DNA from: Escherichia phage Killian
Sequence record: OQ446694.1
DNA: 64,000 bases
Direction: 5' to 3' (one strand)
In this document: positions 35,753 through 39,157 of the stretch, piece after piece
Numbering within the stretch: the stretch's first letter is position 1
Layout: each line of letters opens with the position of its first letter
The notes under the pieces: model-generated
Database searches by the model: none
Told to the model about the DNA's origin: nothing
What the model saw: the letters and a program-made list of their open reading frames with translations, nothing else
Program-made: the position numbers and the translations under genes

Positions 35753-36591
35753 TAGAATGCTCCTTGGAAAATATTATCACCGCTAGTAGGTCTATTATAC
35801 AAATACTCTATGCCACCAGGTTTAATATAGTTCCATGTCTGAAATGGATGTGTCTGATATGGATGATATAGATGATTATAAGGATTAAATCCAGGCGTTC
35901 TCCAGGTAGTGTTCCAAGGAAAAGAATCGTTTTTAACCATCTTCTCAATTAAATCTTTTACAGCTTTTTCACTATCAAAACTTTCTTTATTTTCCTTCGG
36001 CGAAAAAAGCTTATTTTCTACATCATTCCATGTATAAACTCGCTGAGCAGTTTTTGGAATATTGTCACGCTCTCCTCGAGCCATCCAATAAACAGGAACA
36101 TTTAATATTTCACTCGCATGATCGCAGTGATGAGCGAGATCGTCAATATAACAAATTACGTTATATTTCTCTTTTGCCTTTTTAAACAACTCTTCTTTTG
36201 AAGAATCATGACCACACATCATTACTTCTGAGAAGGCACCAGGAAAAAGAGCATTCAAATTAAATTGACGATTCAACAGAGCGTCAATAGAATCACCCAA
36301 TGCTGTGACAGCTACAAAATTATAATCTTCTTTTAATTTGTTAATTACACACAGTGCATCTTTATATGGAGACAAGTAACGAATAAAATCTGATCGATTA
36401 TATTTTTCAATTAGCTTGACACCGAGTTCTTCATCACAATTAAAGAGTTTACCTGGAGAAATAAATTTCTCATCTTGGATCATTTTTAAAATATGTTCTA
36501 ACGGAAGATTATATTTCTGAGCAAAATAAGGAAGACCTGATTGCCAGCTTAAACATACTCCATCAATATCAGTTAAAATAGTAGGCTTCAT
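35752..36591 (-). CDS. HAD-superfamily phosphatase-like protein (30.2 position)
   Basis: 279 aa; N-terminal ILTDIDGV (HAD motif I, DxDG) and later YIDD motif. Confidence 0.65.
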   Translation of the reverse strand: MKPTILTDIDGVCLSWQSGLPYFAQKYNLPLEHILKMIQDEKFISPGKLFNCDEELGVKLIEKYNRSDFIRYLSPYKDALCVINKLKEDYNFVAVTALGDSIDALLNRQFNLNALFPGAFSEVMMCGHDSSKEELFKKAKEKYNVICYIDDLAHHCDHASEILNVPVYWMARGERDNIPKTAQRVYTWNDVENKLFSPKENKESFDSEKAVKDLIEKMVKNDSFPWNTTWRTPGFNPYNHLYHPYQTHPFQTWNYIKPGGIEYLYNRPTSGDNIFQGAF

Positions 36592-37052
36592 AGAGAGTCT
36601 CTTAATAGGTTTAACACATCAATAAATTCAGCTTCGGTTAGTATTGTATCATCTTTTGTTAGACCACTAGCCATGCTGTGCTTCAAAACTTTTCCTTTCG
36701 AGGCTTGTAATGCATCACGAAAGCCCCTGTTTTGGAACGCTGCTTCAAAATATGCATTTGTGTATAATTCTTTCCACGCTGGAGAGTATCTTGAAAACTG
36801 AACTCCAAGCCAGAAGAGGGTCCCACGGTCCTGAGCTCTAGCATAAGCTCGTCCAGCTTGTTGGGCGGCAAGCCCGGATAACCCAAATATACGATGTTGC
36901 TGTTCAACATTTTTCACCTTGCATCCTTGGAGGAATCCTTCGAGACCTCCAAATTGGATACCATCCATAACAAAAGGCCATTGGGCGAAATTACTTAATG
37001 CACATGATGGCCATCTAAAATTGCTTCTAATCTCTAACTCAGACATTTTCAA
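36588..37052 (-). CDS. NADAR / YbiA-family protein (30.3 position)
   Basis: 154 aa; LSNFAQWPFVMDG...EGFLQGCK parallels the E. coli YbiA signature FSNFAAWPIKVDG...EHYFQAQK. Confidence 0.7.
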   Translation of the reverse strand: MKMSELEIRSNFRWPSCALSNFAQWPFVMDGIQFGGLEGFLQGCKVKNVEQQHRIFGLSGLAAQQAGRAYARAQDRGTLFWLGVQFSRYSPAWKELYTNAYFEAAFQNRGFRDALQASKGKVLKHSMASGLTKDDTILTEAEFIDVLNLLRDSL

Positions 37053-38354: not shown

Positions 38355-38430
38355 TTTATTCTCCTTTGTTTGTGTAAGATAATACTATCACAAAGGAACC
38401 ATACTGTAAACAACTTTGTGCAGTCTTTGG

Positions 38431-38460
38431 AAAATAAAAAAGGACTCCCGAAGGAGTCCT
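38431..38460 (-). terminator. Rho-independent terminator AGGACTCC-CGAA-GGAGTCCT plus U-tract after the small basic protein gene
   Basis: 8-bp stem; plus-strand AAAATAAAAA gives a U-run after the hairpin on the minus-strand transcript. Confidence 0.65.
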
Positions 38461-38464
38461 CAAC

Positions 38465-38641
38465 TTATGCTTTCTGCTTACCAAAACGAGAAGCATCATC
38501 TCGAAGAACCGCACGTGCTCGGCGCATGATCTTCTCAACAGTTTGATTGATACGAGAGTTCGACCCACGCTTGTAACCAGCGCGTTTAGAATCACCAACT
38601 TTCTTTTCAACTGCTTTCTTTGCTTTAGCTTGTTTTGCCAT
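38465..38641 (-). CDS. Small highly basic protein (30.9 position)
   Basis: 58 aa from the internal ATG (MAKQAKAKK...), K/R-rich; the longer track start at 38683 would run through the rIII-distal hairpin. Confidence 0.55.
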   Translation of the reverse strand: MAKQAKAKKAVEKKVGDSKRAGYKRGSNSRINQTVEKIMRRARAVLRDDASRFGKQKA

Positions 38642-38761
38642 TATAAATTCTCTTTTAAATGAAAATGCAGGACTTATTGGCATTGCCTGCGCAAGCCCTC
38701 AAGGGGAACATAGGTTTTTGAATATTTAACGACCAGGATAACCATAAACCCGTCATCATAC

Positions 38762-39010
38762 TTACTTCAGTGTTACCACAAAATGACGAACTGCTTTTCG
38801 TGCAGCAGAAGCCAGTGGCTTAGCATATTTAAGTTCATCTTTTTCCTGAAGCTCAGCAGCTAATGCAGTTTGAGCAGGATTTAGATGTTTGAAATAACGC
38901 AGGATTTCAAGAGCTTCGGCTTCAACATCAATAGATGCGCCATAGTTTTCGTGACCATTATTCCATGCGTTTCGTTGCAGTTCAAGAGCGTGTTGTAATT
39001 GTTTAATCAT
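38762..39010 (-). CDS. rIII: Lysis-inhibition accessory protein rIII
   Basis: 82 aa (T4 rIII is 82 aa), directly downstream of gene 31 on the minus strand. Confidence 0.75.
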   Translation of the reverse strand: MIKQLQHALELQRNAWNNGHENYGASIDVEAEALEILRYFKHLNPAQTALAAELQEKDELKYAKPLASAARKAVRHFVVTLK

Positions 39011-39157
39011 TTAAAAATTCTCGTTAGAGATTAAAACTCGGTAGTCACGTTCTTCTGAATTTCATCTTCTTTCGACAGATCTCTCAGTTGTAGACTACCA
39101 CATAGAATTGTTCGGTTAACTTATTATTCCGACACCCAATTCATATTATTATTTATA

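Follow-up and report, generated by a model that had tools for sequence, protein, structure and literature searches.

The 58-codon reading frame on the minus strand of the analyzed DNA (64,000 nt of Escherichia phage Killian, OQ446694.1; hereafter the window) was identified as gene 30.9 of the T4-like phages, and both this identity and the protein-coding status of the frame are near certain. The reading favored here, to which a probability of about 0.5 is given, is that 30.9 is a real and conserved early gene, lying between a structured leader and a terminator, and that its basic product most likely binds nucleic acid. The features of the region are as follows (window coordinates):

38382–38410, minus strand: early-type promoter for 30.8, TTTACA-17-TAGTAT, with TG
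38431–38461, minus strand: predicted intrinsic terminator at the end of the probable rIII-30.9 unit, with a 9-bp GC-rich stem, a UUCG loop and a U-tract
38465–38641, minus strand: gene 30.9, a 58-codon ORF from ATG to a TAA stop (38641 to 38465), encoding a K/R-rich protein
38647–38666, minus strand: putative helix P3, in which AUUUUC would pair with GAGAAU
38667–38690, minus strand: helix P2, the hairpin of the preliminary description, GCAGG/CCUGC with a conserved 14-nt loop CAAUGCCAAUAAGU, then a U-rich run
38692–38706, minus strand: leader box CCCCUUGAGGGCUUG, a small CCC/GGG helix nearly invariant across the Tevenvirinae genera
38729–38756, minus strand: leader hairpin A, just past the rIII stop, with outer pairs GAC/GUC and a loop containing GGUUAUC, then CGUUAAAUA
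38762–39010, minus strand: rIII, for the lysis-inhibition accessory protein, the upstream cistron of the probable rIII-30.9 unit

The encoded protein was 100% identical to T4 gp30.9 (NP_049823.1; UniProt P17310) and matched PHROG 1427 ('unknown function') over its residues 1–58 (E = 2.3e-31). The preliminary description had been unable to assign it to a known family; the gene is in fact already catalogued, as T4 gp30.9 and as a member of PHROG 1427, and is not new. The UniProt entry P17310 holds an older version of 97 aa, named 'uncharacterized 11.1 kDa protein in Gp30-rIII intergenic region'. The window region was 95–99% identical to hundreds of Tequatrovirus genomes, and the window is that of a T4-like phage (Tequatrovirus). 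The genes on its minus strand are arranged in the order cd, 31.2, 31.1, 31, rIII, 30.9, 30.8 and 30.7, as they are in T4. Gene 30.9 is located downstream of 31/rIII and upstream of the 30.x-ligase cluster, an order shared with ten other genera, and the synteny 31-rIII-30.9 is kept across the Tevenvirinae genera. A comparison with T4 30.9 and its neighbors had been proposed in the preliminary description, and it returned an identical protein, the same flanking genes (31 and rIII upstream, 30.8 downstream) and a shared terminator, with a spacer between rIII and 30.9 that measures 120 nt in the window, 244 nt in T4 and 398 nt in phage fPS-90.

The product of 30.9 is a protein of 58 amino acid residues (6.5 kDa) with a pI of 11.4 and a net charge of about +13.5. 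Its translation agreed exactly with the one given earlier, and the K/R content, put there at more than a quarter, was computed as 33% (19 of 58 residues; 11 Lys and 8 Arg), the highest fraction, and an unmatched one, among the 139 ATG-ORFs of at least 50 aa in the 64-kb window. The length of the ORF by itself lies within chance, with many overlapping ORFs of similar size in this AT-rich window; length being insufficient, 30.9 was accepted as real because it is conserved. A 72-aa version starting at the ATG at 38683 was rejected, given that the extension is unconserved in other genera and that this ATG lies inside the P2 loop. The longer N-terminal extensions of 30.9 given by some annotators were likewise unconserved.

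Homologs of 30.9 were found in 68 clusters by a single-sequence search, in 164 clusters by a profile search and in 1,005 phage records by tblastn. They occur in at least eleven genera of the Straboviridae (Tequatro-, Mosig-, Jiaoda-, Kanagawa-, Dhaka-, Gelderland-, Karam-, Roskilde-, Winkler-, Ceceduo- and Jiangsuvirus), Aeromonas and Pseudomonas phages that have no rIII among them. Outside the T4-like phages, homologs were found in Salmonella phage 7-11, an unrelated phage of 90 kb, and among large uncultured phages. Scans of 185,579 GTDB bacterial and archaeal species genomes (degenerate pattern, with confirmation by tblastn) gave only chance matches, and a search of plasmids gave no matches. 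Across members with less than 50% identity, M1, R20, Y23, K24 and R25 were invariant and G22, N28, R30 and R43 nearly so. The family motif, S-K-R-A-G-Y-K-R-x-S/T-N-x-R-I/V, leads into a basic amphipathic helix; the N-terminus, rich in Lys and Ala, is of variable length. In every lineage, a purine-rich ribosome-binding site was found 6–10 nt 5' of the conserved Met. Over a core of 30 codons, the window and Mosigvirus genes differed by 5 synonymous and 0 non-synonymous changes, the window and Jiaodavirus genes gave pS 0.32 and pN 0.04, and the median dN/dS over 403 pairs was 0.38. These sequence comparisons establish 30.9 as a true protein-coding gene subject to purifying selection, and they bear out the earlier claim of a genuine gene for a small, very basic protein.

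Some distant homologs were located on metagenome contigs (L005, L006 and L060–L063; 14–79 kb shown, the longest on record being 307 kb) that mix phage genes, namely a tail-collar fiber, a phage-type RNase H and an RNA ligase, with cellular-type genes for HMG-CoA reductase, UbiA prenyltransferase, LGT and a PEP-utilizing enzyme. A bacterial origin of the contigs was rejected on account of the phage genes; they are probably large phages, which may carry auxiliary genes of an unusual kind, for lipids or isoprenoids.

A time-resolved omics study of T4 classed the 30.9 transcript as 'early', as it did those of rIII, 31 and 30.8, and gp30.9 was undetected in its shotgun proteomics (class NA) (PMC9697503, Table S2). 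Digestion of gp30.9 with trypsin yields only one peptide of at least 7 residues, INQTVEK, a peptide content that explains why standard proteomics missed the protein, so its non-detection is weak evidence either way. In a genome-wide CRISPRi-ART (dCas13d) screen of T4, 30.9 scored 0.04 (p = 0.26, 'Not Fit'; PMC11879866, supplement), and knock-down therefore had no measurable cost in the laboratory host. A study dedicated to 30.9 expression (Driukas & Nivinskas, 2003) was seen as a citation in PMC9409239; our literature search for an assigned function of 30.9 found none.

Downstream of the gene, the terminator begins 3 nt past the 30.9 stop and consists of GAGGACUCC-UUCG-GGAGUCCUU followed by a UUUUUAUUUU tail. 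Its predicted energy was -16.4 kcal/mol (z = -3.7; equaled by 2 of 200 shuffles), in keeping with the strong rho-independent terminator that had been placed 3' of the ORF in the preliminary description. Of 54 distinct homologous loci, 52 had a terminator, a GC-rich stem-loop with a U-tract, starting 3–16 nt past the stop, and the stems differed in sequence (GAGGACUCC, GGGACUCC, GGGAGAC, GGGAACC, GGGGCUCC, AAGCCCC and GGGGUAUC), and phages fPS-90 and D5505 have an annotated terminator at the corresponding site. The annotation of fPS-90 also places an early promoter at the position of the 30.8 promoter of the window. The stem-loop terminator and promoter at 38382–38461 come close to the PeSL cassettes of T4-like phages (PMC2839356, PMC4122927), for which the PST/T4 promoter consensus is TTTACW-N17-TAYWAT (PMC4122927); here, however, the stem-loop precedes the promoter, and the likeness concerns the gene boundary, not the protein.

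Upstream of the gene, no sigma-70-type promoter was found in the 120-nt rIII-30.9 spacer (38642–38761), and neither a late TATAAATA nor a TGCTT box was seen when the same sequence was read through; only 25 nt separate the end of the P2 hairpin from the 30.9 ATG. Since the spacer has no promoter, transcription of 30.9 would have to start at promoters in or before rIII, which in the window makes 30.9 the probable final cistron of the rIII message rather than the independently controlled mini-cistron proposed earlier. Any separate control of 30.9 would act on read-through or on translation. The distant homologs, in contrast, form single-gene units, in which the gene is directly preceded by a sigma-70-type promoter (TTGACC-17-TATAAT in L007, TTGACT-17-TATACT in L005 and GTTTAC-17-TATTAT in L020) and followed by a terminator, a layout that fits a self-contained small effector gene.

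The spacer is prone to indels on its rIII-proximal side, whereas the 115 nt beside the ATG are almost identical in the window, T4 and fPS-90. The hairpin reported at 38667–38690 was recovered with exactly these coordinates as P2; its stability when standing alone was unremarkable (-6.9 kcal/mol, z = -0.9), but its arms co-vary across genera. In 14 distinct versions of the P2 arms, 70 of 70 cells were paired at the five outer positions, compared with 34–39 of 70 in slid controls, and pairs 2–5 each occurred as 3–4 pair types; this count was anchored on flanking conserved sequence and not on pairing, with anchors that were chosen by hand and hence not blind. The anchored count was used because a MAFFT alignment of the whole leader puts the P2 arms in the wrong place. 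Among the arm versions were GCAGG/CCUGC, GAACUGG/CCAGUUC, GGGAG/CUCCC, GGGAGC/GCUCCC, GGGAAC/GUUCCC and GGCGA/UCGCC, and RNAalifold recovered P2 from a subset of the leaders.

Within P3, the GAGAAU arm contains the ribosome-binding site GAGAA, located 8 nt 5' of the ATG. P3 was weak throughout: its energy was -2.4 kcal/mol in the window and ranged from 0 to -6 kcal/mol among Tevenvirinae leaders, and equivalent pairings in other genera are UUCUCC/GGAAGA and CCUC/GAGG. For hairpin A (-6.6 kcal/mol, z = -1.0), alignments gave outer pairs of GUC/GAC and GUG/CAC in other genera; the co-variation of both P3 and hairpin A rests on fewer variants than that of P2. The leader box follows the consensus CCCYUYGAGGGCUUG, and CCCCUUGAGGGCUUG occurs once in the 64-kb window. 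The entire 136-nt leader gave z = +0.29. Given that P2, P3 and hairpin A are no more stable in the window than shuffled sequence, the support for the leader is comparative; across lineages, the comparisons point to a structured leader whose helices are kept by compensatory changes. Rfam 15 covariance models run against the leader and the other conserved RNA blocks gave only sub-threshold matches, on the terminator. P2 with its U-rich tail is a possible leaky stop or stabilizer at the end of rIII, and P3 may partially mask the ribosome-binding site.

Further RNA elements were observed near 30.9. A three-tier hairpin of 60 nt (-16.6 kcal/mol, z = -2.2) is located in the gene 31-rIII spacer (39040–39099, minus strand) and reads GGUAGU-CUACAAC-CUGA-..-AUCU-GUCGAAAGA-AGAU-..-UCAG-AAGAACGUG-ACUACC. 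Other copies were found at L010:1371-1428, L015:1372-1429, L054:1373-1430 and L033:1414-1471. In T4-type phages the element stands upstream of rIII, and in Jiaoda-, Karam- and Moonvirus it serves as the P2 helix of the leader of 30.9; each locus has a single copy, never one at both sites. From 7 copies, RNAalifold gave 17 pairs, 7 of them with compensatory double changes; a covariance model found no second copy in the 64-kb window, and no Rfam match was obtained. The rIII start region (39011–39045, minus strand) is laid out like that of 30.9 (GAGAAUUUUUAAAUG and GAGAAUUUAUAAUG, respectively). In both, a hairpin is followed by a U-rich run and UCUC; then come a short loop, GAGAA and, beyond an AU-rich spacer, the AUG. 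The likeness hints at a regulatory cassette that is shared or was duplicated. A match to the late promoter TATAAATA lies near 39150, directly past the gene 31 stop.

The rIII-30.9 spacer of many relatives carries a multi-helix, RNA-like insert of ~135 nt (L001:1966-2109, minus strand; L010:1204-1347; L012:1243-1386; L015:1159-1302; and 13 further loci), which is patchy even within Tequatrovirus and is missing from T4 and from the window, where its expected place is between 38761 and 38762. The insert is constant in length, has a co-varying closing stem and gave no Rfam match; from 17 distinct copies, RNAalifold yielded a structure of -40.7 kcal/mol with 45 pairs, of which 11 showed compensatory double changes. 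The insert may be a structured non-coding RNA or a mobile element. The T4 spacer (L003:4542-4785; also L011, L013 and L014) holds a conserved block of ~120 nt, deleted in the window, that opens with UUGGAGAUUCACUGCCUUAGUGUGAGCUAAAUCGAGGAGCC and includes GGAG, which we take to be the cleavage motif of the RegB endoribonuclease; in Mosig- and Dhakavirus the block ends with an early-promoter-like TTTACG-17-TACTAT. Elsewhere in the window, gene 30.3 (36588–37052, minus strand) encodes a protein of 154 aa with the N-terminus MKMSELEIRSNFRWPSCALSNFAQWPF, presumably resembling a YbiA/NADAR-type domain, which reverses ADP-ribosylation.

The AlphaFold2 model of gp30.9 showed a single confident helix (residues 29–51, pLDDT ~85) with a hydrophobic stripe, the remainder being of low confidence (overall mean pLDDT 67), and the absence of a hydrophobic core asserted in the preliminary description is thus a fair statement. 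The helix has an amphipathic moment of 0.57, and its hydrophobic positions (I31, V35, I38, A42 and V45/L46) are conserved in kind throughout the family. When gp30.9 was searched against Pfam, 0 families were found at E ≤ 10, and there was no NCBIfam match. A profile search of PDB sequences returned only a chance segment of SlmA (E = 0.14). A Foldseek search with the model found 0 matches in PDB and BFVD, as is expected of a model that consists of a single helix. The family profile was also scored against small E. coli proteins, 11 of 12 of which gave no more than 1.3 bits. The ribosomal and ribosome-associated proteins bL34, bL35, bL36, bS21, Sra and RMF are like gp30.9 in size, charge and the lack of a globular core, but they scored at most 1.3 bits with the profile (E ≥ 96) and no Pfam ribosomal family was matched; homology to a bL34-like small ribosomal protein with a 'GF/YKR' motif was rejected on these scores.

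Several other explanations of the region were weighed. That it is a non-coding leader or the rIII 3' UTR with an accidental ORF could be argued from the absence of gp30.9 from shotgun proteomics, the weak T4-type ribosome-binding site (GAGAA) and the many chance ORFs of similar size. The comparative data leave this explanation effectively refuted: more synonymous than non-synonymous changes were counted, the frame and start are kept in ~1,000 genomes and between subfamilies at less than 50% identity together with an invariant peptide motif, and the distant homologs have their own promoter, ribosome-binding site and terminator. The strong positive charge would also suit a virion-packaged peptide that neutralizes DNA in the head, akin to an internal protein. 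The T4 internal proteins IPI–III carry a capsid-targeting leader; judged by eye, the N-terminus of gp30.9 has no such leader, the transcript is early and not late, and the late promoter TATAAATA is absent from the 30.9 leader, all of which make packaging very improbable.

The charge of +13.5 bears equally on the proposal that gp30.9 is a nucleoid protein of histone-H1-like or HU-tail-like type, which early in infection would coat or compact either the cytosine-containing DNA of the host or that of the phage. Its N-terminus, MAKQAKAKKAVEKK, resembles low-complexity DNA-binding tails, the K/A/P-rich C-terminal tails of the distant members P0074 and P0076 are likewise tail-like, and the neighborhood is full of DNA-metabolism genes (ligase, dCMP deaminase, RNase H). 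However, the tails are variable and sometimes missing (P0063, P0082), it is the GYKR-SN motif and the helix that are invariant, and HU, H-NS and H1 profiles gave no match, so that DNA coating appears unlikely. The conserved helix would instead be central if gp30.9 were an inhibitor, its hydrophobic stripe docking on an acidic host protein (a defense or housekeeping enzyme) and its basic residues giving electrostatic affinity. The stripe is conserved in kind, its moment is 0.57, and a small early gene that is dispensable in a defense-poor laboratory strain is typical of anti-defense genes; but none of 22 family members matched a PADLOC model of anti-defense or defense-associated families, inhibitors of this kind are more often acidic while the basicity of gp30.9 is extreme, and conservation over hosts from Aeromonas to Klebsiella indicates a universal target. 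We consider an inhibitor about as doubtful as DNA coating.

Under the favored reading of a nucleic-acid-binding product, which is the most natural one that the amino acid composition suggests, 30.9 would be the 3'-most cistron on the early rIII transcript, reached by way of the conserved 120-nt leader. P2 and its U-rich tail may attenuate read-through into 30.9, and the pyrimidine tract of the leader may mask the 30.9 ribosome-binding site, such that protein output would be set after the start of transcription. The protein would comprise three parts, namely the Lys/Ala-rich N-terminal tail, the motif S-K-R-A-G-Y-K-R-x-S-N-x-R and the amphipathic basic helix (29–51). From its composition and the model, gp30.9 is inferred to be an intrinsically disordered, highly basic peptide, which probably becomes ordered upon binding a polyanion. 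There is a weak preference for RNA over DNA as the target, whether host or phage RNA, the ribosome or its own leader, because the gene travels with conserved RNA structure, because hosts from Aeromonas to Klebsiella must all have the target and because small early T4 proteins that act on RNA are known. In such a role, gp30.9 would be a dispensable early accessory factor of host takeover or counter-defense. Several results count against this reading: none of the Pfam, NCBIfam, PADLOC, PDB or Foldseek searches linked gp30.9 to a characterized RNA- or DNA-binding family, the structure model is of low confidence, the leader helices of the window fold no better than shuffled sequence, and knock-down has no phenotype in the laboratory host.

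Two kinds of known system offer likenesses. Arginine-rich-motif peptides, such as lambda N with boxB and HIV Tat/Rev, fold on an RNA hairpin. Like them, gp30.9 is small, very basic and largely disordered, and it is early and adjoins conserved RNA hairpins, one with a C(GAAA)G loop in the gene region; it has no sequence similarity to them, however, and is Lys-rich rather than Arg-rich; the likeness is one of analogy. TifA (gp61.2) is a small, early RNA-binding T4 protein that blocks the ToxIN defense (PMC10853763). Both it and gp30.9 are small, early and dispensable proteins of the T4 family, and the action of TifA through RNA is a precedent for the kind of function proposed; TifA is nevertheless encoded by a different T4 gene (61.2) and is likened to gp30.9 by description, and gp30.9 has no ToxIN or defense match in PADLOC.

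A more specific proposal, which we regard as quite a long shot, is that gp30.9, as an arginine/lysine-rich peptide, represents a novel type of RNA-binding phage regulator: it would recognize the conserved hairpin modules of the 31-rIII-30.9 region and through them tune the read-through or translation of rIII and of its own message, or would dock by the same surface on host rRNA. The modules would be the CCCYUYGAGGGCUUG box with P2 in its own leader, plus the three-tier hairpin, which is met before rIII in T4-type phages and inside the 30.9 leader in the Klebsiella-type phages. The type of P2 was independent of the protein subtype, as T4-type gp30.9 occurs with both the simple and the three-tier P2, and this lack of co-variation argues against a tight recognition pair of protein and P2.

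With ~1,000 phages in several subfamilies, gp30.9 is among the most widely conserved proteins of the T4 family that have no assigned function. The present analysis provides handles on it, among them the GYKR-SN motif, which can be mutated, and a co-varying leader that points to post-transcriptional control. Should gp30.9 bind ribosomes or the neighboring hairpins, it would constitute a new small regulator in a classic model system.
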